Shown here piece after piece: positions 11,787 to 38,634 of a stretch of 64,000 nt of DNA. Position 1 is the first letter of the stretch. Every line of letters begins with the position of its first letter. Below the pieces are notes generated by a model that saw only the letters and a program-made list of their open reading frames with translations, ran no database searches and was not told the origin of the DNA. The position numbers were made by a program, and so were the translations under genes. The DNA comes from an uncultured Solibacteraceae bacterium (GTDB taxonomy: Bacteria; Acidobacteriota; Terriglobia; Bryobacterales; Bryobacteraceae), in assembly GCA_964554945.1 (NCBI GenBank), contig CAZKQQ010000008.1:2827-66826 (forward strand). Reading direction: 5' to 3'.

Positions 11787-14700
11787 TCAGAAAATGTACT
11801 TCAGGGCCAACTGGACGATGCGTGGATTTACGCTCGTGGAAGTAATCTGTCCGAAGTTGCCCGCGGCGAAATTCGGCAGGCCGTAGATAGCGCCCTGGCC
11901 GAAGTTTGGATTGGTGAACTGCGGGTGATTGAAGGCGTTAAAGAATTCGGCTCGGAACTGGATTGTCTGCCGCTCCCGAATGGTAGTGGTCTTCAAAATC
12001 GAAAGGTCGAAATTGAATTGGCCCGGTCCGGGAATGATGCCCGATCCGCTGTTGCCGTAAAGCGTGCCGCAGGTGATGCCGGGGTTCGCCGCCGCGCACT
12101 GCGCCTGGCCGGAACTGGACGGGGTGGAGTAGTAAACCGTCCCCGTGGGCGACATCGCCGGCGGGGCGACAAAGGCCGCTTTGTTGAACCAGCCGGGACC
12201 GCCGCTGGCGCCGCCTAACCGGTCCTCCACGCCGCCCGAAGTCGCGATATTGTCGTAGGTCATGCCGGGCGCGATTTGTGCCCGGCCGAAGCCAGCCTGG
12301 CTGGTCCCGCTGGTGCCGAACAGCGTGCCGGCTGTCTGGTCGGCGATCGTCATCGGCGATCCGCCCTGGACCACCGTCACGCCCGACACGTTCCAGCCGC
12401 CGACCACCTTCTGCAGGAAGCCCGAATGCGTGCGGAACGGAAGGTCGTAACTGTAATTCGCGACGAAACGCTGCGGACGGCTGAACGTGGCAGGCCCGTA
12501 CTGCTGCGCGAGATCGCCGGCGTTGTTGCTGTTGGCGACATCGTTGTATTCCACCGTCATGTCCTTGCTCCACGTGTACGCTCCCTGGAACGTGAAGCCG
12601 TGCGAGAACTGCTTGCGAACGGTCGCCTGCAGGCTGGTGTAGTTGGCATACGCGTCAAAAGCCGTTCCCCGGACACCCACCGCCTGATAGCCGAGATACG
12701 GCACGCGGAACGCGACGTTCCCCGTAGTATTGGTGGTAATTCCGTTGATTGGGTTCGCGGCGCTGGCGAGCCGTGCCGTATTGTTGTTGTGATACTGCTC
12801 CATCAGGTTAATGGAACTCGATCCGACAAAACCGGCTTCGAGGACCCATTGATGCGCGAACTCATACTGGATCCCCAGGTTGTACTGCCGCACCAGGGGC
12901 GTATGAATGACCTCGTCCAGGAACGGAACGTTCAGGTTTGAAGTACAACCGGGAAGCGTCGCGTTTGCCATGCACGAGGGCGTGAAATTGATAAAGCGGG
13001 ACGAGAACGTCCCGAGCACCGGTGTGGCCGGGAACGGACTGGCGAGAGTCAGGTTGTTGAACGAGTTGAAGTCGATTGTCGCCGAATAGGGATTACCCTG
13101 CTCGACCGAATAGACGATGCGGTCACCGCCCACCCGGTCATAGAAGATACCGGCGCCGCCGCGGACTACCAGCTTGCTATTGGCCTGGTAGGCGAATCCG
13201 AAGCGCGGGCCGAAGTTGCTAAGCGGCGCCCGTTCTCGCAATGCGGATTTGCGCGAATTGATCAGCACGCCATCCGGCGGCTGCGGGTAGTGGTCGAGAT
13301 AATTGTTCGGCACCACCCACTGGCTCACGCCCGGCCCCGAAGTGGTGGGTCCGCTCGGTGGAATCGGAACGGCCGCGATGCGGCTCACCCAGCTTTGCGT
13401 CAGATTGCCGTACTTGTCGGTAAGGGCTCCGTTGTACTCCCAACGAACGCCCAGATTCAGAGTGAGGCGCGAGTTGAGCTTGAAGTCGTCCTGGAAAAAC
13501 GCGCTTCCACCCGGAGCGCTGTAGCCATGGACGATGCCCTGGGGGGCGCTGCGCGTACAGAACAGACACTGGTTGATGTTGCCGGGCTGTCCGGTCGCGG
13601 TGTTCTGCGGACCACCGACCAGAAGGTCATTGAAGCTGCCAACCGTGAAATTTCCACGGGTTCCGGACCAAGTGATCGGCCAGTCGTTCCGTTCCCATTC
13701 GAAACCGACGCGCATCGTATGGCGCCCGCGGGAGAGCGAAACCTGGTCGGCGATCTGCTTCTGGTTGGTCACGCTGTAGGTGCCGTTATTGATGCCGCCT
13801 AGGATGGTGAAGCCGCTGGCCGAAATGTTGAAGGGAGGAGGTAACTCGACACCCGGGACATTGGGCGTAATTCCCAAGCCCGCATTGGTGACGCCGGGAG
13901 GCGCTTGAGCACCAGTCTGCGCGAGATTGCGCTGCATGGAAATGCGCGCTTCGTTCACAATCGTATTGCTCGCGACAGTCGTAAGCTTCAGGACAGCATT
14001 CACGTTGTCGAAACCCAGGTTGTTTGGAGCGCCGGGCAGCTGGCCGCCCAGAGGCGCGATCTGCGGATCGTTGGTATAGAACCAGCGGGCCGCGAGACTG
14101 TTCTTGGCGTTGATCAGGTAATCCCCGTTGATCAGTTCCTGGTTGCCGTTATAGATTGCCGGACTGGAGAACGTGACCTGCCGGTAACCGGCGACGCCCG
14201 AAGACGGAAAGTAATACTGGCCGTTGGGCAACTTGATGTTGAGAATATTCAGCGCCACAGGATTGATATTGGACCCATCGCATAAAACGTTCTGGCTCCC
14301 GCTCGGGGTGACGAAATTCCGGTCTCCCGGATGATTTTGCGGGCAACTGGCGGCTCCCAGCGCGTCGCGGAATCCGGCCGCGGAACGGTCGCCCGCCGGA
14401 ATCGGCGGCAGCAGCGCCGTAGTCACGCCCTGCGACGCCAAACCATTCTTCTGACGGGTTCCCTGGTAGCTGCCGAAGATGAAAAACTTATCTTTCTTGA
14501 TGGGACCGCCCAACACGCCGCCAAACTGGTTCTGATTGAGAATCTGTTTCGTATTGGCGCTCGCGGGATTGTTGCGATTGTAGAAGAAATCGTTGGCGTT
14601 AAAGATCGAGTCCCGCAGGAACTCGAAGGCGCTTCCATGAAATTGGTTCGAGCCGGACTTGGTCACCACGTTCACGTTTGCGCCGGGATTGCGCCCATAG

Positions 14701-15434
14701 CTGGCGTCATAAGTCGAGGTCTGCACTTTGAATTCCTGCAGCGCGTCCGGGCTAGGAATGCCGACGCCCGTGTACAGGCTCGCGTCGTTGGCGCTGCCGC
14801 TGTTGGCGAAGTTGGTGATGTTCACGCCGTCCATCTGGAAATTGTTCTGGCCGGGATCGTTGCCGTTGACGCTCATGTTCTGCGTGCCCTTGCCCAACGC
14901 CGTGGCGTTGTTGGCGCCGCTATTGGTGCCGGCCGATAGGGCGATGATCTGCGTGTAGTTGCGGCTGCTCAGGGGCAGCTGCGTCACGGTGCGCGTGCCT
15001 ACGGTGTTGCCCAGCGTGGAAGTCGCCGTTTGCAGTGCCTCCACCTGCGATTCGACCGTCACTTGTTCGCTTTGCGAGCCGACCTCAAGGGTGCCGTCCA
15101 GGACAGGAGTCTCGGTTACGTTCACGACAACAGAGGAAACCTCCGCCGTCTTGAATCCCGTGGCGCTAAACCGCACGCGATAGCTTCCTGGCGGCAGGAG
15201 CGAAAATTTATAGACGCCGTCGGCTCCGCTCATTCCGGTGCGGGTTTGATTGGTGTCCGTGCTCGTCAGCGTGACGACCGCTCCGGCAACAACGCCACCG
15301 CCTGGATCCGTTACGGTCCCGGTCAGAGCTCCGGTCCCGGCGGATTGGGCAAGTAAGTAACTGGTGAACAGCGCACATGTGACTATGCACAAACCAATCC
15401 TGGAAAGTTCACTTCGCCGATTCGATTCGTTCAT
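11787..15434 (-). CDS. TonB-dependent receptor, Oar-like, with N-terminal carboxypeptidase-regulatory-like domain
   Basis: N-terminus GTVTDPGGGVVAGAVVTLTSTDTNQTRTGMSGADGVYKFSLLPPGSYRVRFSATGFK. C-terminal barrel ends in LALKYIF. 1215 aa. Confidence 0.9.
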   Translation of the reverse strand: MNESNRRSELSRIGLCIVTCALFTSYLLAQSAGTGALTGTVTDPGGGVVAGAVVTLTSTDTNQTRTGMSGADGVYKFSLLPPGSYRVRFSATGFKTAEVSSVVVNVTETPVLDGTLEVGSQSEQVTVESQVEALQTATSTLGNTVGTRTVTQLPLSSRNYTQIIALSAGTNSGANNATALGKGTQNMSVNGNDPGQNNFQMDGVNITNFANSGSANDASLYTGVGIPSPDALQEFKVQTSTYDASYGRNPGANVNVVTKSGSNQFHGSAFEFLRDSIFNANDFFYNRNNPASANTKQILNQNQFGGVLGGPIKKDKFFIFGSYQGTRQKNGLASQGVTTALLPPIPAGDRSAAGFRDALGAASCPQNHPGDRNFVTPSGSQNVLCDGSNINPVALNILNIKLPNGQYYFPSSGVAGYRQVTFSSPAIYNGNQELINGDYLINAKNSLAARWFYTNDPQIAPLGGQLPGAPNNLGFDNVNAVLKLTTVASNTIVNEARISMQRNLAQTGAQAPPGVTNAGLGITPNVPGVELPPPFNISASGFTILGGINNGTYSVTNQKQIADQVSLSRGRHTMRVGFEWERNDWPITWSGTRGNFTVGSFNDLLVGGPQNTATGQPGNINQCLFCTRSAPQGIVHGYSAPGGSAFFQDDFKLNSRLTLNLGVRWEYNGALTDKYGNLTQSWVSRIAAVPIPPSGPTTSGPGVSQWVVPNNYLDHYPQPPDGVLINSRKSALRERAPLSNFGPRFGFAYQANSKLVVRGGAGIFYDRVGGDRIVYSVEQGNPYSATIDFNSFNNLTLASPFPATPVLGTFSSRFINFTPSCMANATLPGCTSNLNVPFLDEVIHTPLVRQYNLGIQYEFAHQWVLEAGFVGSSSINLMEQYHNNNTARLASAANPINGITTNTTGNVAFRVPYLGYQAVGVRGTAFDAYANYTSLQATVRKQFSHGFTFQGAYTWSKDMTVEYNDVANSNNAGDLAQQYGPATFSRPQRFVANYSYDLPFRTHSGFLQKVVGGWNVSGVTVVQGGSPMTIADQTAGTLFGTSGTSQAGFGRAQIAPGMTYDNIATSGGVEDRLGGASGGPGWFNKAAFVAPPAMSPTGTVYYSTPSSSGQAQCAAANPGITCGTLYGNSGSGIIPGPGQFNFDLSILKTTTIRERQTIQFRAEFFNAFNHPQFTNPNFGQGAIYGLPNFAAGNFGQITSTSVNPRIVQLALKYIF

Positions 15435-15774
15435 TTACCCCTCGCGTTAGACCGATTTTCGACCCACTGGCCCCGGGGTCCCCGATATGGCTCACGATTA
15501 TATGCGATCTTCGTTGCGAAAGGAATGGATATTTGCAGGCGGTATTCTGCGGCGGGGACGGCGGTCTCCATTAGCCTCCGCTTCCAACACAACTGTTCAC
15601 GAAGTGTTTACAACTGCGAACAGTGATCGCCTGTATTCTTGCTTCGGGGAACCAGGACAACTTAGCATCTTCGTCACGCGCGTTTGCAACGTTCTATTTG
15701 TCTCTCAGCAGAGCCTGCACGCATTGGCGCAAGATACGACATCAACGAATCTTTCACAGACGGGGAGAATAGAC

Positions 15775-27161: not shown

Positions 27162-30100
27162 ATGAGAAGGAACGATTCTCAGCAAAACAGCCGGATGGGG
27201 CGCCTGCTAATTGTCTCGCTGGTACTGGCACTGCTCGCGGCCCTGATACCAATTGCAGCGGCACAGGAAGTGACCGCCGGGATCACCGGCAAAGTCACGG
27301 ATCCATCCGGAGCCGCCATCGTGGGAGCGTCAGTGGTAGCCAAGGACGTAGATCGTGGCACCGAATGGAAAACTCAAACCAATGAGGAAGGAATTTACAA
27401 CCTGCCTCGCGTGCCAACCGGAAAATACGAACTGCGGGTAGAGGCGAGCGGGTTTCAAACAGCCGTCCAGCCGCCGTTTGATCTGGTGCTGAACCAGACG
27501 GCGCGGATTGAGTTCGCGATGGTGCTCGGCCAGGTCTCTCAGACCCTGGAAGTGACCAGTGCGGTCCCCTTGCTGCAGACCGAAAATACACAAGTCGGCT
27601 CGGTGATGCAGGCCAGCACGATTGCCAATCTGCCGCTGCAGACGCGCAATTATAACCAGTTGACTCTGCTGGTACCGGGCGCGGTGACGATCAGCCCGGC
27701 GTCGTTCAATACGGGCCAGAAGACATTCAACTCCGCGCGGCCGAACATCAACGGCAACCGCGAGCAGGCGAACTATTACATACTCGACGGCCTGGATAAC
27801 AATGAGTTCGTCGATAACGCGGTGGCCTTCGTGCCGAACGTAGACGCGATCGAAGAGTTCAACGTCATTACGAACAATCCGAGCGCGGAGTTTGGCCATT
27901 TCCTCGGCGGAGTCATCAACGTCAGCCTGAAATCCGGCACGAATCAATTCCATGGCAATGCGTTCGAGTATCTGCGCAACGACTTTTTCAATGCCAATGA
28001 ATGGTCGAACAATTTCAATGGCCTGCCGACGCCGCGGCAGCGCTGGAATGAATACGGGGGAACCCTCGGCGGACCGATCAAGAAGAACAAGCTCTTCTTT
28101 TTTGCGGACTATCAGGGATCACGGTTCGATCTTCCCGCCACTCCGAATCCGAAGACTACGTTCACCGCGCCGAATATCACCGGCAACCTGACCGATATTG
28201 GCGCGTCGCTGCACTATCCGGGGACCACGGTGGCGATGCCGGCGGATTTAAGGCAAGCGGCTATCTGCGGAGCGGGACAAAAGATGGGCGTCAATCCTTG
28301 CATCACGGGGTTGAGTCCGGTGGCGCTGAAGATCGCGAATGCTCTGCCGAAGCCGAATCTTCCCGGCACGCCGGGCAGCCAAGGGACGCTCGCCAACCTG
28401 GCGAACACGACCCAGACCTACACGCACGGTAACCAAGGCGACATAAAAGTGGACTGGGCGCCGACAGACTTCGACCGCTTTTTCGCCCGTTACTCCCAGC
28501 AGCACGTGACGCGGCCGATCGTGAATAGCGAAGCGTTCCAGTATAGCGGCGATGGCAGCGGCGTCTTTCCGATTCAGCAGGCGGTGCTCAATTACACGAG
28601 GACGTTCAGCCCGCGCCTGCTGAATGATTTTCGTTTGGGAATGAGCTATTATCCGGCCGAAGACAAATCCGAAGCGCTGACCACAAATGCAGGCGCCAAC
28701 CTGATACCCGGACAGCCGATGCCATTCCTTCCCGGGTTGTATTTTGCCAATGCGCCGATCGGGGGTCAGCAGAACGGCCCGTTCGCGTTCGGCACCACGT
28801 TCGCGCCGGAAGTGTTCCACCAGACGACCATTCAGGTTTCCGACACCGCGATCTTCACGAAGAACGCACATACATTGAAGTTTGGATTCCAACTGATCCG
28901 ATACCGGAACAACTACATACCTGCCACGAGCAATGATGGCGCGGCGGGGCAGATCGGCTTCACAGGAACCTACACCGGGAACTCCGAAGCGGATTTCTTC
29001 CTTGGTCTGCCCGCTTATATGGGCTATGGACTCGGATTTGCCGGAACCGTAGGCCAGCGAAACAATGCGATCGGAGCATTCGTGCAAGACGACTGGCGAA
29101 TCAGCCGGCACCTGACGATGAACATCGGGGTGCGTTGGCAGCTCTTCACGCCGATTTATGAAGTGCACGACCGCATGACGAACTTCGGGATGTATAGCGG
29201 TCAAATCCAGCTGGCGGGGCAGAACGGCAACAGCCGGGCCCTTTACAACCAGTACAACGGGATCGCGAACTTCTTGCCGCGTCTCGGGCTGGCTTACACT
29301 CCCGATGAGAAGACGGTGATTCGCGCGGCCTTCTCGCGCTCGAGTTTCTGGGAAGGCACCGGCGAGTACAACCGGCTGGCAACGAATTCGCCGTGGAATA
29401 CCGATCTGGTCGGCACGTGGGGCGGGGTCGGGTCGAATGGCGCAATCCCCTCAAACCAGATCACTCTCGATCAAGGCTTCGCAGGGCTCGGAGCCGCGGG
29501 CGCGCCCTGCACGACAGCCAATGTCACTTCGGCGTCAGCCACGTGCTTCGCCGGCGTCCGGCTGCACGCGACCGATCCGAATTATCGCCCGGCGGTATCC
29601 AATCAATGGAACTTGAGCATCCAACGACAGGTGGGGAAATCGTTCACGGCGCAAGCGGCGTACGTCGGGCAACATACCGATCACATCGCGGCCATATACA
29701 ATATGGGGCAGAATTTCCTGTTGCCGAACGGCACCGCGATTCCGGGTCCGTATCTGTCGGGGAATCCGGCTCTGAAGAATGCCGGCACCGGACAGCAGCG
29801 GCTGAACACATCGACCGCGATCCAGAACTATGAAGCTTTGCAAATGATGGGTCAGCAGCGGCTGACGAAAGGGCTGGCGATCCAGGTAAACTACACCTGG
29901 TCCAAGTGCCTGACGGACAACCAGGGTTACTACGGCCGGTATGGGAACGCGGCCGCGGCGCAGACGCCGGCAGACGTTTCCTTCCAATCGTATGTTTACA
30001 ACGTGCGCGGTCTCGACTATGGCCTTTGCGACGCCGACGTCACGCACAATTTTAACGGCTATCTGAATTACGACCTGCCGTTCGGCAAAGACCGGATGTT

Positions 30101-30650
30101 CGGCAAGAACGCCGGCAAAGCGGTGAATGCGATTCTCGGCGACTGGCACTACGACACTATCTTCACGGTGCATGGCGGCCTGCCGGTTTCGATGATTCAG
30201 TTCGGCTCCGATCCGACCGGCGCTTACTTCCAGCCGCGTCCCGATTGCATCGAGCCCTCGAAAGCAACACCTTATAAGAATTTCGCCGGCGGCGGTTATA
30301 TCTGGTTCGACCCGACGACGATGCGGATACCGGGCCCCGGCAAACTCGGCAACTGCAGTATTTCCTCGCAGCGCAGCCCGGGCTACCGGCAGATCGACAT
30401 GAGCCTGGCGAAGACCTTCCGAATCACGGAGCGGCAGAACCTGCAATTCCGCTTCGACGCCATCAACACCTTCAACACGCCGATCTTCACGATGGGCGGC
30501 TACTCGGCGGATGTCCTCCCGGGCAACTGGAACGATAATGTGAGCCGCTACGGAACCGACATCAACTACACGAAGAGCGTTCCGACGGGCGTGGTGAATA
30601 CGTCGCTCGGCGCGCGCAATCTGCAGTTTGCCTTGAAGTACACGTTCTGA
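27162..30650 (+). CDS. TonB-dependent receptor, Oar-like, with carboxypeptidase-regulatory-like N-terminal domain
   Basis: GKVTDPSGAAIVGASVVAKDVDRGTEWKTQTNEEGIYNLPRVPTGKYELRVEASGFQ. C-terminus LQFALKYTF. Paralogue of 11787..15434. Confidence 0.9.
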   Translation: MRRNDSQQNSRMGRLLIVSLVLALLAALIPIAAAQEVTAGITGKVTDPSGAAIVGASVVAKDVDRGTEWKTQTNEEGIYNLPRVPTGKYELRVEASGFQTAVQPPFDLVLNQTARIEFAMVLGQVSQTLEVTSAVPLLQTENTQVGSVMQASTIANLPLQTRNYNQLTLLVPGAVTISPASFNTGQKTFNSARPNINGNREQANYYILDGLDNNEFVDNAVAFVPNVDAIEEFNVITNNPSAEFGHFLGGVINVSLKSGTNQFHGNAFEYLRNDFFNANEWSNNFNGLPTPRQRWNEYGGTLGGPIKKNKLFFFADYQGSRFDLPATPNPKTTFTAPNITGNLTDIGASLHYPGTTVAMPADLRQAAICGAGQKMGVNPCITGLSPVALKIANALPKPNLPGTPGSQGTLANLANTTQTYTHGNQGDIKVDWAPTDFDRFFARYSQQHVTRPIVNSEAFQYSGDGSGVFPIQQAVLNYTRTFSPRLLNDFRLGMSYYPAEDKSEALTTNAGANLIPGQPMPFLPGLYFANAPIGGQQNGPFAFGTTFAPEVFHQTTIQVSDTAIFTKNAHTLKFGFQLIRYRNNYIPATSNDGAAGQIGFTGTYTGNSEADFFLGLPAYMGYGLGFAGTVGQRNNAIGAFVQDDWRISRHLTMNIGVRWQLFTPIYEVHDRMTNFGMYSGQIQLAGQNGNSRALYNQYNGIANFLPRLGLAYTPDEKTVIRAAFSRSSFWEGTGEYNRLATNSPWNTDLVGTWGGVGSNGAIPSNQITLDQGFAGLGAAGAPCTTANVTSASATCFAGVRLHATDPNYRPAVSNQWNLSIQRQVGKSFTAQAAYVGQHTDHIAAIYNMGQNFLLPNGTAIPGPYLSGNPALKNAGTGQQRLNTSTAIQNYEALQMMGQQRLTKGLAIQVNYTWSKCLTDNQGYYGRYGNAAAAQTPADVSFQSYVYNVRGLDYGLCDADVTHNFNGYLNYDLPFGKDRMFGKNAGKAVNAILGDWHYDTIFTVHGGLPVSMIQFGSDPTGAYFQPRPDCIEPSKATPYKNFAGGGYIWFDPTTMRIPGPGKLGNCSISSQRSPGYRQIDMSLAKTFRITERQNLQFRFDAINTFNTPIFTMGGYSADVLPGNWNDNVSRYGTDINYTKSVPTGVVNTSLGARNLQFALKYTF

Positions 30651-30665
30651 ATCTTTCCTTCCACG

Positions 30666-30700
30666 GCGGGCCGGCGGCACAAGCCGGCCCGCTTTTTTTT
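30666..30700 (+). terminator. intrinsic terminator
   Basis: Perfect 10-bp stem GCGGGCCGGC/GCCGGCCCGC with loop GGCACAA, followed by T8, 16 nt after the stop codon. Confidence 0.9.
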
Positions 30701-30753: not shown

Positions 30754-31221
30754 ATGCGTCCGGCTTCTGTTTTAGTTGCTATCACAATGATCGGGTTCGT
30801 TTATGGGCAGGCGCCGGCAACGGACCCGCATGAAGACCCGAAAGCGAACGGCGGGAACCGGACCGGCGATTCAAAGCAGGCGCCGCCCGATCCGCAGGCG
30901 GCGCCGGATCCGGTACCAGTGCGTGCTCCGAACCCGGATACGGCGGCGCCGGACCAGCCTGGGGCCGGCACGAAACCAGCCAGCGATACCGAGCTGATAA
31001 GCGCGATTCGCGCTGCGCTCGCGGCTGATCGCGAAACGCGGCAGGCTGCTGGAAGAATAAAAGTGATCGCGCATGCCGGCACGGTCACGCTGCAGGGGAC
31101 GGTGACAACCGCAGAGTTCCGGAGGTCGGTGGAACAGAAGGCCACCGCGATTGCGGGTAAGGGCAAAATAACGGACGAGATCAAGGTGAAAGCGAGCGTC
31201 CGGGGTTCGCGTTCCGAGTAA
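30754..31221 (+). CDS. BON domain protein with a Pro/Ala/Asp-rich linker
   Basis: LISAIRAALAADRETRQAAGRIKVIAHAGTVTLQGTVTTAEFRRSVEQKATAIAG is a BON-like pattern. N-terminal signal MRPASVLVAITMIGFVYG. Confidence 0.75.
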   Translation: MRPASVLVAITMIGFVYGQAPATDPHEDPKANGGNRTGDSKQAPPDPQAAPDPVPVRAPNPDTAAPDQPGAGTKPASDTELISAIRAALAADRETRQAAGRIKVIAHAGTVTLQGTVTTAEFRRSVEQKATAIAGKGKITDEIKVKASVRGSRSE

Positions 31222-31257: not shown

Positions 31258-32046
31258 GTGCCCCCCCGCCCCCCGCCCCCCCGTTTGACACCGGTTTCCG
31301 GCACATGTACGATCAACGGCGTGAACAACTCGACAGGGGCTGCCCTCGTTGTCGCCCTCCTCACGATTTCCGCGTCCGGTCAAACGTACCGGGCCCCTCG
31401 CACTGCGGACGGAAAACCGAACATAAACGGCATCTGGCAGGCCGTGAACTCGGCCGACTGGGACCTGCTGGGACATGCGGCTGGACAGGGTCCTGTGTTG
31501 TCGCTGGGAGCGGTGTTTTCGCGGCCCCCGGGGTTAAGCGTGGTGGAAGGCGATGAGATCCCGTATCTGCCCGCCGCTCTTGCCAAAAAGAAGGCCAACC
31601 AGGCCGACTGGGTCAAGCTCGACCCCGAGGTGAAGTGCTACCTGCCGGGCGTGCCCCGCGCGACCTATCTGCCTTATCCGTTTCAGATCATACAGTCATC
31701 GAAGAACATTATGGTGGCATACGAGTATGCGGGAGCGGTCCGTGTCATTAATATGGAAGCTCCCACGAAGGCACCGGCCGACAGCTGGATGGGGTGGTCG
31801 AACGGGAAATGGGAAGGCGAATCGCTGGTGGTCGATGTGACGAGCCAGAACGATGAGACCTGGTTCGATCATGCGGGCGATTATCATAGCGATGCCCTGC
31901 ACGTGGTGGAGCGATACACGCCGCGCAGCGCCGACACTCTGAATTACGAAGCCACCATCGAGGATGCCAAAGTTTTTTCGCGGCCGTGGAAGATCAGCAT
32001 GCCGCTGTACCGGCACGTCGAGAAGGACGCGAAGCTTCTCGAATAA
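31258..32046 (+). CDS. secreted protein of unknown function, paralogue 1 (divergent member); start uncertain
   Basis: Shares YRAPRTADGKPNINGIW, WEGESLVVDVTSQ and LHVVERYTPRSADTLNYEATIEDAKVFSRPW with the next two genes. Candidate starts are GTG 31258, TTG 31285 and GTG 31321. Confidence 0.7.
   Translation: MPPRPPPPRLTPVSGTCTINGVNNSTGAALVVALLTISASGQTYRAPRTADGKPNINGIWQAVNSADWDLLGHAAGQGPVLSLGAVFSRPPGLSVVEGDEIPYLPAALAKKKANQADWVKLDPEVKCYLPGVPRATYLPYPFQIIQSSKNIMVAYEYAGAVRVINMEAPTKAPADSWMGWSNGKWEGESLVVDVTSQNDETWFDHAGDYHSDALHVVERYTPRSADTLNYEATIEDAKVFSRPWKISMPLYRHVEKDAKLLE
31261..31282. repeat. C7-G-C6-G-C7 homopolymer cluster
   Basis: Read directly: cccccccgccccccgccccccc. Confidence 0.95.
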
Positions 32047-32124
32047 AAATGCGTTGAATTCAGTGAAGAGGTATTATACTGACCTCTCCGCAAGAAGCCA
32101 ATCAACCCTTAGAAGGAGGCTCCC

Positions 32125-33102
32125 ATGATGCGTCGGCTGCTCGCATTGGCGGCTGCTTGGGCGGCACTGTCGCTCGCGCAGACTCCCGCGGCGAAGTCCT
32201 GGAAAGCGCCGCGGACGCCGGATGGCGCGCCGGACATTCAGGGCATCTGGAGCAACTCCACGCTGACTCCTTTGGAGCGGCCGAAAGGACTCGGAGCGAA
32301 AGAGTTCTACACGGAACAGGAATTCGCCGAACTGGCGAAGCGCGTGCGCGAGGGCAAAGTCGGCGATGAAGCCGATATCGGGGCCGCCGCCGAACAGACG
32401 CTCCGGTACGACCTTAGCTTGTATGGATTTGACATCACCAAGGCGACGTTCGCATCAAACCGGCGCACGTCGCTGATCGTAGGACCGGAGGGCGTGGTGC
32501 CTCCGATGCTGCCGCAGGCGAGGAAAAGAAATGCCGAGCGCGCCGCGAAGAACAAAGGACACGAGTTTGACAGCTACGAGAACCGACCGCTGCAGGAGCG
32601 CTGCATTCTGCTGGGGCAGGAAAGAATCCCGATGCTGAGCGGGCCCAACGACAATAACGAACTGCAGATCGTGCAGGGACCGGGCTGGGTGGTGTTACTG
32701 CATGAGATTAACCACGACACCCGCGTGATTCCCACGGACGGGCGTCCGCACCTGCCGCAAAGCATTCGTCAATACCAGGGAGATTCGGTCGGGCATTGGG
32801 ATGGAAACACGCTAGTTGTCGATACGACGAATTTCATGGACCTGGCAAATTTTCGAGGATCCGGCGAGAAACTGCATCTGATCGAGCGCTTCACGCGCAC
32901 GGCGGAGGACACAGTGCTTTACCAATTCACCGTCGAGGATCCGGAGACATGGTCGAAACCGTGGACCGCGGAAGTTCCGATGGTCAGGACAGAAGGACCG
33001 GTATACGAGTGGGCCTGCCACGAAGGCAATACGATGATATCCACCATCTTGAATGGGGCGCGTGTTGCGGAGGCAGAGGCCGCCAAGAAAGCCGGAAAGT
33101 AA
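32125..33102 (+). CDS. secreted protein of unknown function, paralogue 2
   Basis: Signal MMRRLLALAAAWAALSLAQ. Motifs WKAPRTPDGAPDIQGIW, GDSVGHWDGNTLVVDTTNF and YEWACHEGN. RBS AGGAGG. Confidence 0.8.
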   Translation: MMRRLLALAAAWAALSLAQTPAAKSWKAPRTPDGAPDIQGIWSNSTLTPLERPKGLGAKEFYTEQEFAELAKRVREGKVGDEADIGAAAEQTLRYDLSLYGFDITKATFASNRRTSLIVGPEGVVPPMLPQARKRNAERAAKNKGHEFDSYENRPLQERCILLGQERIPMLSGPNDNNELQIVQGPGWVVLLHEINHDTRVIPTDGRPHLPQSIRQYQGDSVGHWDGNTLVVDTTNFMDLANFRGSGEKLHLIERFTRTAEDTVLYQFTVEDPETWSKPWTAEVPMVRTEGPVYEWACHEGNTMISTILNGARVAEAEAAKKAGK

Positions 33103-33117
33103 CAAATGGGAGGAATC

Positions 33118-34143
33118 ATGAAAGCGCCATTGGCCGCGTTGGCGGCCCTTACGATGATCGTTACGCTGGCGCCGGCGCCGGCCGCCGGACAGACGTTGTC
33201 GCCTGCCGCGAAAGCGGTCAAGGCCGGCAAGCCTTGGACGCCGCCGCGCACCGCCGACGGCCATCCGGACCTGGAAGGGGTCTGGACGAATAACACGGTT
33301 ACCCCCCTGCAGCGGCCGAAGGCAGTCGCCGGCAAGGAGTTTTACACGGAAGCCGAACTAGAGGCGCTGACAAAAAAGGAAAACGACCGGCTCGCCAAGA
33401 ACGAGGAAGAGGGCCTTCCCACCGAGCCGGGAACCGCCGCGGACGTGCATTATGACTTTAGCGAGTATGCTCTCGACCGCGGTCAGGCCAAGATGGTCTG
33501 GAACCGCCGGACTTCGATTATTACGGGTGCGGACGGCACCATTCCGCCGCTGACTGCCGAGGCGCGCCAACGAATTGCCGAGCGCCGCGCCAAGGCCAAG
33601 GGCCATGAATTCGATGGTCCCGAGAACCGGCCAATCGGCGCCCGCTGCCTGGCGCGGGAAAATGTAGGCCCGCCCCTGCTGCCCACTGCCTACAACAGCA
33701 ATCTGCAAATCGTGCAAGGCGCCGGGTATGTGGTAATCGAAACCGAGATGATTCACGATGCGCGCGTCATTCCGACCGACGGCCGCAGCCACATTTCGAA
33801 GAACATCCGCCAATGGTATGGCGATTCCGTCGGCCACTGGGATGGCAATACGCTGGTGGTGGACACGACGAACTTCACGAACCTGAGCCCGTTCGAGGGG
33901 GCCGAGAATCTGCACGTAGTCGAACGCCTCACGCGGGTCGACAACGATACGATCCTGTACCAGTTCACGGTAGAAGATCCGGGTATGTGGACCAAGCCGT
34001 GGTCCGGGGAACTACCCATCACGAAGGTTCAAGGGCGGATCTACGAATACGCTTGTAACGAAGCGAATTACGGGTTGGCGAATACGCTGCGCGGCGCCCG
34101 GGTGGCCGAGGAAGAAGCCGCCAAGAAAGCAGCAGGCAAGTAG
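33118..34143 (+). CDS. secreted protein of unknown function, paralogue 3
   Basis: Signal MKAPLAALAALTMIVTLAPAPAAGQ. Motifs WTPPRTADGHPDLEGVW, GDSVGHWDGNTLVVDTTNF and YEYACNEAN. ATG 33118 follows GGGAGGA. Confidence 0.8.
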   Translation: MKAPLAALAALTMIVTLAPAPAAGQTLSPAAKAVKAGKPWTPPRTADGHPDLEGVWTNNTVTPLQRPKAVAGKEFYTEAELEALTKKENDRLAKNEEEGLPTEPGTAADVHYDFSEYALDRGQAKMVWNRRTSIITGADGTIPPLTAEARQRIAERRAKAKGHEFDGPENRPIGARCLARENVGPPLLPTAYNSNLQIVQGAGYVVIETEMIHDARVIPTDGRSHISKNIRQWYGDSVGHWDGNTLVVDTTNFTNLSPFEGAENLHVVERLTRVDNDTILYQFTVEDPGMWTKPWSGELPITKVQGRIYEYACNEANYGLANTLRGARVAEEEAAKKAAGK

Positions 34144-34174
34144 GGTAAACTCAATCTCTGACAGGGAGTGACCG

Positions 34175-34588
34175 ATGAGAACGAAAGTACTCGCAGCGAT
34201 TATTGGCGCCGGCCTGCTGCTGGCAGCCGTGCCTGTGTGGGGGCATCACGCGTTTGCAGCGGAATTCGATCAGAACAAACCGCTGAAATTGAAAGGAACC
34301 GTGATCAAGTGGGAGGTGAGTAATCCCCACTCCTGGATCCACATGGAAGTCAAAGGCGACGATGGCAAGGCAGTGACCTGGATGGTGGAAGGCGGGAGTC
34401 CGAACAACCTGTACCGGCTGGGATTCACGAAGGATTCTCTTCCGGCAGGAGCGGAGATCGTGGTGGACGGCTATCAGGCCAAGGACGGCTCGACGCGCGC
34501 GGTCGGAAAGAACGTAACCTTCGCCGACGGCCGACGGCTGTTCCTCGGACTTTCGGCGCTGGAGAGCGATCCTTCGAGTAAGAAGTAA
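34175..34588 (+). CDS. small exported protein whose predicted mature N-terminus is His-His (resembles the DUF6152 family, from memory)
   Basis: MRTKVLAAIIGAGLLLAAVPVWG followed by HHAFAAEFDQNKPLKLKGTVIKWEVSNPHSWIHMEV. RBS AGGGAG. Confidence 0.75.
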   Translation: MRTKVLAAIIGAGLLLAAVPVWGHHAFAAEFDQNKPLKLKGTVIKWEVSNPHSWIHMEVKGDDGKAVTWMVEGGSPNNLYRLGFTKDSLPAGAEIVVDGYQAKDGSTRAVGKNVTFADGRRLFLGLSALESDPSSKK

Positions 34589-34641: not shown

Positions 34642-34793
34642 CGAAGCGGCTTTCCTTCTCCCATTTACTCTAAGAATAAGTCGATTTGGGCAGGGCTCCC
34701 TTACCGCCGCGGTTCTGTGTCCGTTGAGGGATGCGCGCGCGCCCGCGCGGGCCGGGCGCGGGCGTAGTATGTAAGCGTGAGGCGATTGAGAAG

Positions 34794-36125
34794 ATGAACA
34801 GCCGTTGGGTGCTGGTGGCCGGGTTCGGCGGTCTGCTGCTGCTGATGACCTTCGCCGGCGCCGACATGCTCGGAACCCTCGGGGGCATTCAGAGTTCAAA
34901 CGATAATATCCGGGAAGACTTTCTGCTGCGGACGCACGTGTTGGAACGGATTCGCACGGATCTTTACGTTTCCGGCACATATGTTCGCGATTACCTGCTC
35001 GAGCCGGAAAGCGGAAAGGCGGAAGGGCATCGCTATAGCCTTGTCGAGACCAAGAAGGACATGGATACGGCGCTGGACGAATACCGGCGCCTACTGACGG
35101 TCCAGGAATCGCGAACGTTCCAACGTCTGACACAGGAACTGGGGAACTATTGGAACGTCCTGGATCCTGTTTTTCATTGGAGCGCGGAAAAACGGATGCG
35201 GGACGGCTTTCCGTTTTTGCGCGACGAGGTGTTCCCGCGGCGTATGGTGATGCTGGGAATCGCCGACCAGATCCGTGACATTGATGAATCCCAACTGAAT
35301 GCCGCGAAGCTGCTGGGACAGCGAACTTATTCGCAATTCCGCCAGCGTCTGACCGTCACTCTGGGCCTGACTATCGGTGTTGGCGCGCTGCTGGCTGTTT
35401 TCTGCATGCGCAAGATCCTGCAGCTGGAGCATGCGACGTCGAAGCACTTTCAGGAAATCGAGAATGCGCGCGCGGAATTGCAGCAACTCTCGGCGCGGCT
35501 TCTGGCGGCCCAGGAGGAAGAGCGGCGCTCGATCTCTCGCGAATTGCACGACGAAGTAGGCCAGGCCTTGACAGGCGTGCTGGTCGAGATGGCCAACCTG
35601 TCTACTTTGATTCGCGCGCGCGATCTCGAGGGAGTTGACGCGAAAGCCGGCGAGATTAAACGCGAGGTGGAAGGCTCGATCAGCGTCGTTCGCAATATGG
35701 CTCTCCTGCTCCGTCCGTCGATGCTCGATGATCTGGGCCTGTTGCCCGCGCTGGAATGGCAGGCGCGCGAGGTCGGCAAGCGCAATGGCTTATGGATCAA
35801 GGTGGATGCCGAAGAAGTCTCCGAACAACTGCCGGAAGAACACAAGACTTGCGTCTATCGCATCGTGCAGGAGGCTCTGCACAATATCGTCCAACACGCC
35901 GGAGCGCGCAGCGTCAGCGTCACCGTGCGCCAGCATCCGGGCAGTCTGGCGGTCACGGTTCGCGACGACGGCAAAGGCTTCGATCCGCGCCGCCAACGCG
36001 GCATGGGCCTGCTCGGTATCGAAGAGAGAGTCGGCCACCTCGGCGGCACCCTCACGGTGGAATCGCAGCCGGGACAAGGAACTACCCTGCATGTGAAGCT
36101 GCCGCTGATGAAGGTTGCGGCATGA
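34794..36125 (+). CDS. sensor histidine kinase (NarL-partner type, HisKA_3) with four-helix-bundle-like periplasmic sensor
   Basis: H-box RRSISRELHDEVGQALTG. ATPase region DDGKGFDPRRQRGMGLLGIEERV. Two TM segments flank a region of about 170 aa. Confidence 0.85.
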   Translation: MNSRWVLVAGFGGLLLLMTFAGADMLGTLGGIQSSNDNIREDFLLRTHVLERIRTDLYVSGTYVRDYLLEPESGKAEGHRYSLVETKKDMDTALDEYRRLLTVQESRTFQRLTQELGNYWNVLDPVFHWSAEKRMRDGFPFLRDEVFPRRMVMLGIADQIRDIDESQLNAAKLLGQRTYSQFRQRLTVTLGLTIGVGALLAVFCMRKILQLEHATSKHFQEIENARAELQQLSARLLAAQEEERRSISRELHDEVGQALTGVLVEMANLSTLIRARDLEGVDAKAGEIKREVEGSISVVRNMALLLRPSMLDDLGLLPALEWQAREVGKRNGLWIKVDAEEVSEQLPEEHKTCVYRIVQEALHNIVQHAGARSVSVTVRQHPGSLAVTVRDDGKGFDPRRQRGMGLLGIEERVGHLGGTLTVESQPGQGTTLHVKLPLMKVAA

Positions 36126-36772
36126 CGACGGTCCAAATCGTTCTCGCCGACGACCACACCGTGGTGCGGAAGGGCCTGCGCCTCCTGCTGGAGAGCGTGC
36201 CGCAGTTTCAGGTGGTGGCCGATGCGGCGGACGGACGGCGGGCGGTAGCCTTGGTTGACGAGCACCGGCCGGATGTCGTCGTCATGGATATCGCGATGCC
36301 GATCCTGAACGGCATTGAGGCGGCGCGCCAGATCTCCATCAAGGCGCCGCAGACTGCCATCGTTTTTCTAAGCATGCATTCCGACGAAGCCTACGTGATC
36401 AAGGCCCTGAAAGCCGGAGCGCGCGCGTATCTGCTGAAGGATTCCGCCGAGAATGACCTGATCAACGCGGTTAAGGCGGTGAGTGAAGGTAAATCTTTTT
36501 TCAGCCCCGCCGTAAGCAAGATGCTCGCCGAGGATTATATGCGCCAGATGCGGGAACATGGCGTGGATGACAGTTTTGATCTGCTGACGACAAGAGAGCG
36601 CGAAATCCTGCAGTTGCTCGCCGAAGGCAAGAGTAATAAGGAGGTCGCCTCCATGCTGAACCTGAGTCTCTACACGATCGAGACCCACCGCAGCAATATC
36701 TTTCAGAAATTGAATCTGCACAGCACGGCGGATCTGATTCTGTATGCGGTGCGCAAGGGCGTGATTGCCTGA
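36122..36772 (+). CDS. NarL/LuxR family response regulator
   Basis: MTTVQIVLADDHTVVRKGLRLLLE receiver domain. LTTREREILQLLAEGKSNKEVASMLNLSLYTIETHRSNIFQKL HTH. ATGA overlap with the kinase stop. Confidence 0.9.
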   Translation: MTTVQIVLADDHTVVRKGLRLLLESVPQFQVVADAADGRRAVALVDEHRPDVVVMDIAMPILNGIEAARQISIKAPQTAIVFLSMHSDEAYVIKALKAGARAYLLKDSAENDLINAVKAVSEGKSFFSPAVSKMLAEDYMRQMREHGVDDSFDLLTTREREILQLLAEGKSNKEVASMLNLSLYTIETHRSNIFQKLNLHSTADLILYAVRKGVIA

Positions 36773-36930
36773 CGAGCACGGGAGGGCACGGCCGCAATCC
36801 AGCATGGTGGTGGTTTTCAGCCACCCCGCGGGATTGCTGCGCCACGATAACTTCTCTGCAGACAACAGATTTGGTTTTGGCGAGGAACGTGCCCTTTGCC
36901 TTTGTGCCCGACGCCAGTAGGAGGTTGTCA

Positions 36931-38634
36931 ATGAACGGTCCCAGCTTCCGAAAAGCGCCTTACCAGGTCTTGAGCATTCTCTGCGTCATGGTTTTGGTGC
37001 TCTTGCCGATGGGCGCGCTGCTCGCTCAGGACCCGGGGCAGCAAGCTGCGCCCGGGGCGCTGCTTCCACCCGAGCAACTCGACAACCTGGTGGCTCCGAT
37101 CGCCTTGTACCCCGATTCTCTGCTCAGCCAGGTATTCGTGGCGGCCACCTATCCGCTGGAGGTTGTGGAAGCCGGCCAATGGCTGCAGCAGAATCGGAAT
37201 TTGCAAGGCTTGGCGCTGGTGAATGCCGCCCAGCAGCAGAACTGGGATCCGAGCATCCAGGCTTTGGTGGTATTTCCGGATGTCCTGAATCTGTTGACCT
37301 CCAATGTGCGTTGGACTACCGATCTGGGCAATGCGTTTCTCGCACAACAAGCCGATGTGATGAACGCCGTTCAGCGGATGCGTGCGCAGGCGCAGGCATC
37401 CGGCCGGTTGAGTTCGAACAGCCAGGAGACGGTCACCACGGAAACGCAGAACGGCCAGCCGGTGATCGTGATCGCGCCCGCCAATCCACAGGTGGTCTAC
37501 GTGCCCGCGTACGATCCGGCGTATATTTGGGGACCTCCCGCGTGGGGCTATTACCCACCGCTCTATTACCCGGAGTTTGGATATGGATTCGGCTCGGGCA
37601 TCTTCATCGGAAGCTACTTCGGCGGCTTGGGTTGGGGCGGTTGGGGCTGGGGTCCGAACTGGTACAACTGCACAATTGTGCAGAATGGTTTCTTCTTCAA
37701 CCGTTATGGCTTTCGGGGATTTCACGGTGGCTTTGACCGGGGTTATCGCGGCGGTTTCAACGGCGGCGTGTGGGCGCACAATCCGGACCACCGGCTGGGA
37801 ATTCCTTATCCGAATGGCGGCGTAGCGAACCGTTTCGGCGGTGCGCGATTTGCCGGCGCCCGCCAAAGCTTCGGAAGCACACGCGGAAACTTTTCCAATT
37901 TCGGCGACCGCGGTTCAGGCGCTGTCGCGAGCCGCGGTCCGGGTTCAGTCGCCACTCCTGGCGCGCAGCAGGGCGGCTGGCGTCGTTTTGGCGAGTCCGG
38001 GATGCCCGGCGGGCGCAGCTTACAATCGGGCGTTTTAGGTAACGCGGAAAACAGATATTCCGCGCCTTCGGTAAATCGTGGTGGTTCGGGGAGCCGATTC
38101 GGAAACCCGGGATCCCAACAGGCCTACCGATCCGGTCCCGCATTCAGCGGCAACACAGCGCGCGCGTACAGCCCGAACGTGGGCGGAGGCAACGCCTACC
38201 GCTCGGCGCCTTCGTATGGCGGCGGAAGCGCGTACCGCTCGGCGCCTTGGTACGGCGGTGGAAGCGTGTACCGCTCGGCGCCTTCGTACGGCGGTGGAAG
38301 CGCGTACCGTTCCGCGCCTTCGTATGGCGGCGGCGGATACCGGTCCGCTCCCGCCTTCGGCGGCAGCGGAGTCCGCGGCAGCGGCGGCGGCAGCTTCCGC
38401 TCCGCTCCGTCGTTCGGCGGCGGTGGCGGCTTCCGCTCCGCTCCGTCATTCGGTGGAGGTGGTGGCGTCCGCGCGGCTCCGTCATTCGGCGGCGGCGGTG
38501 GCCGTTCCGCTCCATCATTCGGCGGCGGGGGCGGCGGCGGTTTTCGCGGCGGCGGCGGGGGCGGCGGCTTCCGTGGTGGCGGCGGTGGCGGGGGATCCCA
38601 CGGTGGCGGTGGTGGCGGCGGACATCGCCGCTAA
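36931..38634 (+). CDS. DUF3300-like exported protein with a long Gly-rich repeat tail
   Basis: LVAPIALYPDSLLSQVFVAATYPLEVVEAGQWLQQN is the characteristic N-terminal block. ATG 36931 follows AGGAGG. The tail consists of YRSAPSYGGGSA-type and FRSAPSFGGGGG-type repeats followed by FRGGGGGGG. Confidence 0.8.
   Translation: MNGPSFRKAPYQVLSILCVMVLVLLPMGALLAQDPGQQAAPGALLPPEQLDNLVAPIALYPDSLLSQVFVAATYPLEVVEAGQWLQQNRNLQGLALVNAAQQQNWDPSIQALVVFPDVLNLLTSNVRWTTDLGNAFLAQQADVMNAVQRMRAQAQASGRLSSNSQETVTTETQNGQPVIVIAPANPQVVYVPAYDPAYIWGPPAWGYYPPLYYPEFGYGFGSGIFIGSYFGGLGWGGWGWGPNWYNCTIVQNGFFFNRYGFRGFHGGFDRGYRGGFNGGVWAHNPDHRLGIPYPNGGVANRFGGARFAGARQSFGSTRGNFSNFGDRGSGAVASRGPGSVATPGAQQGGWRRFGESGMPGGRSLQSGVLGNAENRYSAPSVNRGGSGSRFGNPGSQQAYRSGPAFSGNTARAYSPNVGGGNAYRSAPSYGGGSAYRSAPWYGGGSVYRSAPSYGGGSAYRSAPSYGGGGYRSAPAFGGSGVRGSGGGSFRSAPSFGGGGGFRSAPSFGGGGGVRAAPSFGGGGGRSAPSFGGGGGGGFRGGGGGGGFRGGGGGGGSHGGGGGGGHRR
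38194..38631 (+). repeat. in-frame tandem repeats (units of about 36 nt encoding YRSAPSYGGGSA, degenerating to FRSAPSFGGGGG and poly-Gly)
   Basis: Near-identical units taccgctcggcgccttcgtaYggcggYggaagcgYg are repeated consecutively. Confidence 0.9.

Follow-up and report, generated by a model that had tools for sequence, protein, structure and literature searches.

An uncatalogued exported protein family paired with DUF6152, a candidate N-terminal-histidine metal protein of predicted OB-fold

What could be the role of exported proteins that stand in a tight row of four genes and bear no functional name? The question is raised by a 64,000-nucleotide (nt) stretch of contig CAZKQQ010000008.1 from an uncultured Solibacteraceae bacterium, hereafter the window, in which three paralogous genes and one small gene follow one another on the plus strand. 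The paralogues, referred to as P1, P2, and P3, belong to a family that we call L, and the fourth protein (P4) is a member of DUF6152 that we call D. We find that L and D genes travel together, and that D proteins share a small set of invariant histidines at and near their predicted mature N-terminus, which strongly suggests a metal site. P1, of the short L subtype, spans 31258–32046 (262 amino acids (aa) from GTG 31258 in the list of open reading frames (ORFs)). P2 and P3 are of the long subtype; P2 spans 32125–33102 (325 aa) with the leader MMRRLLALAAAWAALSLAQ and a core including Cys160 and Cys298, and P3 spans 33106–34143 (345 aa, or 341 aa from ATG 33118). D (137 aa) is encoded at 34175–34588. 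A reading made from the letters of the window only, the sequence-only reading, had drawn these four ORFs as genes of exported proteins with spacings of 78, 15, and 31 nt. The leaders, all of Sec type as read by eye, agree with this, and so do the gaps between P1 and P2 (78 nt, 32046 to 32125) and between P3 and D (31 nt, 34143 to 34175). The P2–P3 gap is 15 nt if P3 starts at ATG 33118 and 3 nt if it starts at ATG 33106; in relatives, the P3 orthologue is called as 341 aa, i.e. from ATG 33118. All the motifs quoted by that reading are present, namely PRTxDGxPxxxGxW, GxWxGxxLVVDxT, and LHxxERxT...TxED...PW in the paralogues, and VWG/HHAFAAEFD (the slash marking the predicted cleavage) and NPHSWIH in D. 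The closest named relatives are from Bryobacteraceae metagenome-assembled genomes (MAGs).

D matches the Pfam family DUF6152 (PF19649) with an E-value of 1.7e-31 and 108.6 bits against a gathering score of 27, its residues 15–108 aligning with profile positions 3–95 of 98. The Pfam entry carries no function. At E up to 10, D has no second Pfam match, whether to CusF, BOF, CopC, DUF1775, PCuAC, or any other family. The relatives of D number at least 7,945. The leader of D is of the Sec type with no twin arginine; any cofactor would hence be acquired in the periplasm. The predicted signal peptide comprises residues 1–23 (34175–34243, plus strand), and the predicted mature N-terminus is His24-His25 (34244–34249, plus strand). 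This His-His start, first proposed from the single sequence, recurs throughout the family. It directly follows an AxA-type signal-peptidase site, read by eye, in 120/120 close homologues and in 78/78 distinct ones, the latter drawn from Acidobacteriota, Sphingomonadales, Sinorhizobium, Azospirillum, and Cupriavidus (Alpha- and Betaproteobacteria). Divergent acidobacterial members have it likewise, as in HHGTAASYD and HHSSVMFE. The proteobacterial D proteins all match DUF6152 above the gathering score, and 11 of 12 show His-His after the site as displayed, e.g. AIA/HHGWSTYD in Cupriavidus. The twelfth, at locus L087, is an over-long ORF in which an earlier HH is displayed, and its real site ISADA/HHSFAMFD is readable.

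In the alignment of the 78 mature D proteins, the only columns conserved in every sequence are His24, His25, Pro51, and His52. The last two lie in the N50-P51-H52 turn (34322–34330, plus strand), within the segment NPHSWIH that had been singled out as a second histidine cluster. This proposal holds for Pro51-His52 and fails for His56, which is variable, with Tyr, Arg, Asn, and Glu occurring at its position. No methionine is found among the residues kept in at least 85% of the sequences. Conservation of this kind, with three histidines and a proline invariant and the rest variable, typifies binding sites and not interfaces. Taken as a set, His24, His25, and His52 strongly suggest a metal site that uses the N-terminus.

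A histidine brace had been put forward for D by analogy to LPMO, CopC, and PmoB-type proteins. In a histidine brace, copper is bound in a T-shape through three nitrogen atoms, two from the histidine at the N-terminus (its amine and its imidazole) and one from a second histidine's imidazole (PMC10952591). Known brace proteins are the lytic polysaccharide monooxygenases (LPMOs) of families AA9–17, the particulate methane and ammonia monooxygenases (pMMO/pAMO), X325, CopC, and PmoF1, with YcnI as a mono-histidine variant (PMC10952591). D fits the first feature through its predicted N-terminal histidine and could fit the second through a further histidine, and the invariance of His24, His25, and His52 makes a brace plausible. 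A kinship with these families is not borne out, as D has no sequence relationship with LPMO, CopC, or PmoB and is predicted to have another fold; by Pfam and by predicted structure it lies outside every known histidine-brace family.

The AlphaFold (AF2) model of D has a predicted local distance difference test (pLDDT) score of 73 overall and of 80–92 in core residues 31–120. It contains two strands within residues 31–49, strands at 54–61, 66–72, 94–102, and 108–116, and a helix at 76–81. The order strand-strand-strand-helix-strand-strand is that of the oligonucleotide/oligosaccharide-binding (OB) fold. A Foldseek search with this model returned 23 PDB matches at E <= 1e-3, all of them the OB domain of lysyl-tRNA synthetase (LysRS), from 2.3e-4; the engineered OBody and the single-stranded DNA-binding protein (SSB) Rim1 also matched, with target template modelling (TM) scores of 0.58–0.64. 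The model thus presents the core of D as an OB-fold, a closed barrel of five strands in which a helix separates strands 3 and 4, and the modelled fold is not that of LPMO, CopC, YcnI, or PmoB. The NPH turn links strands 2 and 3. By OB-fold topology it would share the barrel end where strand 1 begins, which would put it close to the N-terminus.

We then inspected how far D and L genes keep company in other genomes. The L-centred scan took one genome per species of the Genome Taxonomy Database (GTDB) and gave at least 597 loci, the best 79 of which were analysed. These 79 are nearly all from Acidobacteriota (Bryobacterales, Terriglobia, Vicinamibacterales, and Acidiferrales), with one alphaproteobacterial MAG. 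They hold 62 D genes; a same-strand L gene is adjacent to 60 of them and lies directly upstream of 57. Fourteen of these 57 overlap L by 4 nt, and most others start within 40 nt of it. The commonest runs are short-long-D (16 loci), L-D (14), and short-long-long-D (11), the last being the order in the window; about 20 of the 79 loci have a solitary L gene. As this sample is centred on L, a D-centred scan of metagenome contigs was also made, in which 70 loci extend far enough upstream to be judged. In 66 of these L lies directly upstream of D, and the four others include one L-D-D arrangement. A D-centred tblastn search of PLSDB plasmids yielded 14 records. In those with an L match, from Novosphingobium, Sphingobium, and Croceibacterium, L adjoins D in 8/8 at about 27–34% identity, and on a Sinorhizobium plasmid a profile hidden Markov model (HMM) finds L adjoining D. 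The census thus bears out the co-conservation of L and D in other genomes. Because the pairing is kept across phyla at low sequence identity, it is strong evidence that L and D form a functional unit.

The L family itself is large and uncatalogued. P2 and P3 are 50% identical (E 6e-111), and P1 and P2 27% (E 5e-21); this is far beyond chance, and the three genes are true paralogues, with P1 a member of a shorter, divergent subfamily, both as first read from the sequence. A profile search over 1.84 billion representatives at 50% identity gave 23,318 L proteins at E <= 1e-3, of which 11,246 reach E <= 1e-10. A word-indexed search gave at least 8,000 homologues, and every source name given is 'hypothetical protein'; hence L has no named member among the matches listed. 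Neither Pfam nor NCBIfam has a match to P1, P2, or P3. The same is true of Pfam for 105 diverse L members, 9 proteobacterial members, and the short-type homologue P0245. Of 22 divergent members searched against Pfam, 21 have no match, and the exception is a fused extra domain. PDB sequences match the paralogues only at chance level (best E 0.37), also when a 105-member profile is used. As the sequence-only reading had it, databases assign no function to any of the four genes, the paralogues having no family match and D only a domain of unknown function; characterised enzymes onto which the families might map were looked for by HMM and structure and not seen.

The short L type (~235–300 aa, like P1) is present in Acidobacteriota and Proteobacteria. 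In the long type (~320–350 aa, P2 and P3), the N-terminal PRTxDGxPDLxGxW motif is followed by an extra segment of ~90 residues. Among the positions conserved in at least 85% of 186 members are, in P2 numbering, Cys160, Pro169, Glu194, Arg200, Gly219, Trp225, Gly227, Leu230, Glu254, Arg255, Asp272, Glu295, and Cys298. Since Cys160 and Cys298 are a conserved pair in an exported protein, they probably form a disulfide. The AlphaFold (AF2) model of P2, built on an alignment of 46 sequences, has a mean pLDDT of 52.5, with a strand-rich part at residues 179–288 reaching 70–81. Its best Foldseek matches are FABP, CRABP, streptavidin, and NanoLuc, at E >= 2.8e-3 and target TM up to 0.58. As the confidence of the model is low, these matches are only a hint, and we tentatively describe the L core as a beta-rich, calycin-like barrel.

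Some L cores are fused to other domains. A DUF3471 domain is C-terminal to the L core in the protein at 14636–15670 of locus L002, a Lipocalin_5 domain is C-terminal in P0484, and a squalene-hopene-cyclase-type repeat (SQHop_cyclase_C) is N-terminal in P0504. All three matches fall outside the L core. DUF3471 was considered as a bridge from L to a known fold and rejected; it occupies residues 256–332 of the L002 protein, past the L-homologous region 9–240, and is therefore a fused extra domain.

P1 is cut short. Its ORF is closed by a premature TAA at 32044–32046, and a second in-frame stop follows, TGA at 32080–32082; both fall in the last 23 codons of the gene. The in-frame translation of 32047–32112 (plus strand) gives KCVEFSEEVLY-stop-PLRKKPINP-stop, a relic of the C-terminal tail. 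In 120/120 P1 homologues the tail is intact as KLLE-YKCVEF(A/S)EEVLYGPLRKKPxNP, and in the window KLLE is followed by the stop and the relic. In two contigs from other samples that are 97–98% identical to the window (L170 and L171), the codons opposite the stops are TAC and GGA, so that the changes are TAC to TAA (C-to-A) and GGA to TGA (G-to-T). The lost tail includes the second conserved cysteine. The stops reflect either recent decay of the tail or sequence errors. They also qualify two earlier statements. P1 was called shorter, and it does belong to the short, divergent subfamily, but part of its shortness comes from truncation at the premature TAA. The 78-nt spacer to P2 was measured rightly, but because homologues continue in frame past the TAA of the window, it is largely the relic of the P1 tail, and the ancestral spacing is 12 nt.

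The start of P1 also calls for revision. GTG 31258 lies within a variable poly-C tract with insertions and deletions and is for this reason unconserved; relatives read CTG there. The true start is likely GTG 31321, which would give the leader MNNSTGAALVVALLTISASGQ followed by TYRAPRT. A consensus scan finds a promoter-like TTGACA-17-TACGAT at 31285–31313 (plus strand, 10/12 match), which is conserved in both 97–98% identical contigs. As this match ends 7 nt 5' of GTG 31321, the P1 transcript may be leaderless from that codon.

Beyond L, the partner that recurs beside D in Proteobacteria is DUF6644. Of 8 proteobacterial loci, 7 have D next to a single DUF6644 gene or to two of them. DUF6644 lies beside D at 5343–6318 of L083, 9647–10707 of L084, 13119–14151 of L085, 8307–8819 of L086, 6788–7791 of L087, 8327–8833 of L088, and 9373–10417 of L089. 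In Cupriavidus campinensis and Azospirillum brasilense Sp7, D is followed by DUF6644 with no L gene, and the order in Sinorhizobium is D-L-DUF6644-DUF6644. DUF6644 is found beside D at L043, L071, L072, L076, and L079 as well. In about six acidobacterial loci, L/D modules have DUF6644 pairs at their flanks. An HMM search of the ORFs in the 64-kb window found neither DUF6644 nor a CopD homologue. DUF6644 proteins have ~155–170 aa and about four hydrophobic segments (by eye), and often come as tandem pairs. Their signature comprises P..E..H in segment 1, whose histidine is strictly conserved, DLRLLG, a glutamate after segment 2, and a C-terminal GR.I. Below the Pfam threshold, DUF6644 matches DUF2214 in 3 of 10 cases (E ~1e-3) and UPF0093/HemJ once (E 0.096), families that we take to belong to the same Pfam clan as CopD.

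Other recurrent neighbours were counted within ~6 kb of the module in 82 loci. Pyrroloquinoline quinone (PQQ)-dependent dehydrogenases are present in 21, and a cytochrome c domain is part of some of them. Oar-like receptors are found in 12 (the window included), NHL propellers in 7, and luciferase-like monooxygenases (LLMs) in 4. A di-haem (2 x CXXCH) cytochrome c of ~400 aa is found in 12 of the 82, in most cases as the immediate neighbour of D and in 5 with the same orientation, e.g. at 10510–11736 of L002, 7454–8659 of L080, and 7615–8811 of L025, and in 9 further loci. Its N-terminal part is a cytochrome c domain of the reaction-centre type, and its C-terminal domain of ~270 aa has only faint similarity to DUF6544. 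As many loci are from related genomes, the acidobacterial counts do not represent independent events. A ~455-aa protein with no Pfam match lies within three genes of the module in 5–6 acidobacterial loci (e.g. L012, 4435–5802). The plasmid loci have their own company. In Croceibacterium the order is D-D-L-TonB-dependent receptor-MarR. On plasmid pTomTYG65a of Sphingobium sp. TomTYG65 (L084, 292554–308880), two LLMs, a flavin adenine dinucleotide (FAD) oxidoreductase with ferredoxin, and a peroxiredoxin precede L-D-L-D, a DUF6644 pair, and a TonB-dependent receptor. This locus holds in all two L-D pairs, two TonB-dependent receptors, an SsuA-like binding protein, TauD, and SsuD, and looks like a sulfur-scavenging locus.

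In the window, the sequence-only reading had placed the cluster between an Oar-like receptor with a BON protein and a NarL-type two-component system, and Pfam confirms this placement. An Oar-like TonB-dependent receptor (CarboxypepD_reg and OMP_b-brl_4) is encoded at 27162–30650, followed by a strong terminator-like hairpin at 30665–30693 and, directly 5' of the module, by an exported BON-domain protein at 30754–31221. A two-component system at 34731–36772 consists of a 4HB_MCP/HisKA_3 kinase and a NarL-type regulator (Response_reg and GerE); all these genes are on the plus strand. Both the BON protein and the two-component system are kept beside the module only in the near-identical (97–98%) contigs, and with no recurrence outside these they were rejected as members of the unit. 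Origin of the region as a foreign island is unsupported, the G+C content being even at 0.57–0.63 along the window. No tRNA gene and no Rfam family at the gathering threshold was found in the 64 kb. Further 3', a DUF3300 protein (ORF 36871–38634) has two arrays of 36-nt (12-aa) tandem repeats at 38182–38622, of the types GGGSAYRSAPSY and GGGGFRSAPSFG, and a Gly-rich tail.

How might L and D work together? Our favoured proposal, which we put forward tentatively and at somewhat below an even chance, is a non-catalytic periplasmic system for metal capture and hand-over, with copper as the first candidate. D would be the metal-binding subunit, for Cu(II) or Cu(I) in the first place. As ligands, His24 would offer its free amine and its imidazole, and His25 and/or His52 (the latter in the NPH turn) would complete the site. 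L would associate with D in the periplasm as a partner of fixed stoichiometry. An outer-membrane TonB-dependent receptor could supply the metal, and D would pass it, where this partner is present, to the inner-membrane DUF6644 pair, a logic akin to that of CopC-CopD or YcnI-YcnJ. Bacterial proteins that bind copper with an N-terminal histidine, such as CopC, PmoF1, and YcnI, act mostly in copper transport and are encoded beside other transport genes (PMC10952591). In the window, TonB-dependent receptors neighbour the module, and so they do at 11 further acidobacterial loci and on two sphingomonad plasmids, which favours the proposal.

Set against known systems, the module shows both likeness and difference. 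Like CopC-CopD and YcnI-YcnJ, it has a small Sec-exported protein with a conserved, predicted processed N-terminal histidine, and in Proteobacteria D adjoins a small polytopic membrane protein, DUF6644, with a histidine in its first hydrophobic segment. Unlike CopC and YcnI, D is predicted to be an OB-fold rather than a beta-sandwich and has no CopC, DUF1775, or PCuAC match. It carries two consecutive N-terminal histidines and has an additional, much larger partner family in L; the similarity of DUF6644 to DUF2214 and UPF0093 is sub-threshold, any likeness to CopD is indirect, and no copper-homeostasis genes, nor copper regulators among the annotated neighbours, accompany the module. With LPMO and PmoB, D shares a predicted mature His1 and a further invariant histidine. 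The c-type cytochromes and PQQ dehydrogenases near the module recall LPMO systems as well, being analogous to known LPMO electron donors. D differs from LPMO and PmoB in its fold, in the absence of sequence kinship and of carbohydrate-binding modules, and in being periplasmic, not secreted. CusF/SilF is a small periplasmic Cu(I)/Ag(I) carrier of OB-fold, a fold type that D is predicted to share. However, D has no CusF_Ec match in Pfam, CusF is outside its top 50 Foldseek matches, and no CusCBA genes are near the module. The CusF site, made of a histidine, two methionines, and a tryptophan, is inside the barrel, whereas the putative site of D is N-terminal and D has no conserved methionine. The link in Proteobacteria between a probably calycin-like L and the histidine-bearing DUF6644 with its roughly four segments also resembles YceI, a calycin-type protein of the periplasm that binds isoprenoids, and its cytochrome b561 partner YceJ. 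L nevertheless has no YceI match in Pfam, DUF6644 has one invariant histidine per chain against four in cytochrome b561, and the L/DUF6644 system has D as a third component. In the literature searched, no mention of DUF6152, PF19649, DUF6644, or PF20349 was found, no paper joins 'histidine brace' with 'OB-fold', and nothing useful on DUF2214 turned up.

Several observations weigh against metal capture and hand-over. The N-terminal segment of D has a pLDDT of ~59, so that the geometry of the putative site comes from a low-confidence part of the model, and the L model, that of P2, is of low confidence (mean pLDDT as above). The kinship of DUF6644 with CopD relies on the sub-threshold matches and on presumed clan membership, and the window and most acidobacterial loci have no DUF6644 nearby. 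In ~170 loci, no classical gene of copper or metal homeostasis (CopA, multicopper oxidase, Cus) recurs. Among the annotated neighbours there is no metal-sensing regulator of the CueR/CsoR/ArsR type, and the regulators nearby are of MarR, TetR, and NarL types. Paralogy within genomes is high, a single genome having several loci of the module and L genes standing in tandem rows of up to seven. Metal uptake seldom shows this, and systems with diverse substrates show it more typically. Finally, its commonest neighbours are redox proteins (PQQ dehydrogenases, di-haem cytochrome c, LLMs), which suit catalysis or electron transfer at least as well.

These last points lead to the alternative that L and D form a periplasmic metalloenzyme, in which D would hold a redox-active copper at its N-terminal histidine site for electron transfer or an LPMO-like oxidase or oxygenase chemistry, the L barrel would bind the substrate, and electrons would come from adjacent c-type cytochromes, PQQ quinohaemoproteins, or, in Proteobacteria, a haem-binding DUF6644 pair. 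It accounts for the redox neighbours (PQQ dehydrogenases, di-haem cytochrome c, and LLMs in 21, 12, and 4 of the loci, respectively) and for the heavy paralogy better than metal capture does. The tandem L genes would then reflect substrate diversity, the near-invariant charged residues Glu194, Arg200, Glu254, Arg255, Asp272, and Glu295 of L could form an active site, translational coupling suits enzyme subunits, and the module on pTomTYG65a follows LLMs, an oxidoreductase with ferredoxin, and a peroxiredoxin. The neighbour counts are, however, inflated by shared synteny among related Bryobacterales, and the genes for cytochrome and PQQ proteins vary in position and frequently lie on the other strand. 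D-DUF6644 pairs exist with no L nearby. Convincing catalysis has not been shown for bacterial brace proteins outside LPMO and pMMO (PMC10952591). A catalytic module is for us the main rival to metal hand-over, though an unlikely one. A bolder form of this idea is a long shot: DUF6152 would be a new OB-fold class of histidine-brace copper proteins and, with L, would make up a periplasmic oxidative enzyme system acting on substrates imported by Oar receptors. As part of the same long shot, its electrons would be drawn from di-haem cytochromes c, PQQ quinohaemoproteins, or a haem-binding DUF6644 pair, and the system would have expanded massively in soil Acidobacteria.

The histidines of D need not bind metal at all. 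They could serve the recognition of a ligand or partner if L carried hydrophobic or organosulfur compounds from TonB-dependent receptors and D were an OB-fold adaptor. Lipid and retinoid carriers of the calycin group (FABP, CRABP) are among the best matches of the L model, and L is fused to lipocalin-type domains in P0484 (Lipocalin_5) and L002 (DUF3471). The adjacent TonB-dependent receptors and TetR/MarR regulators are typical of small-molecule catabolic loci, and the Sphingobium module sits amid the sulfonate-scavenging genes SsuD, TauD, and SsuA-like. Yet the L model is of low confidence and its fold match weak, no ABC or other inner-membrane importer recurs at the acidobacterial loci, and an invariant processed His-His with a third histidine is hard to explain with no metal or cofactor, so that ligand uptake appears rather improbable. 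Still further down in our estimation is a role as abundant structural, chaperone, or stress proteins of the envelope, with the histidines as a pH or redox switch or an interface. The very high copy number per genome would fit, as would the BON protein that immediately precedes the module in the window and in close relatives, and periplasmic OB-fold proteins of the BOF type are associated with stress. That BON neighbour, however, is kept only in near-identical contigs, D has no BOF match in Pfam, and its conservation is of the binding-site and not the interface type, all of which makes such a role very improbable.

The preferred reading of D is that of a candidate metal site with an N-terminal histidine, in which both scaffold and partners are new, and there is a modest chance that the module is categorically new. 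The OB-fold is a scaffold not so far known for an N-terminal histidine site, and the signature of D is simple and testable, a predicted processed His-His and one more invariant histidine. L, with ~23,000 clusters at 50% identity and no counterpart in Pfam, NCBIfam, PDB, or the literature, belongs to the exported families that are expanded in soil Acidobacteria, above all in Bryobacterales. Tractable hosts of the module's components are Azospirillum brasilense Sp7, Novosphingobium, Sphingobium, and Cupriavidus. If D binds metal as proposed, the few N-terminal-histidine copper proteins would gain another, structurally new class, and D would give the first functional handle on L, DUF6152, and DUF6644. 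If its histidines are not a metal site, the strict coupling of L and D still defines a new periplasmic two-component module.

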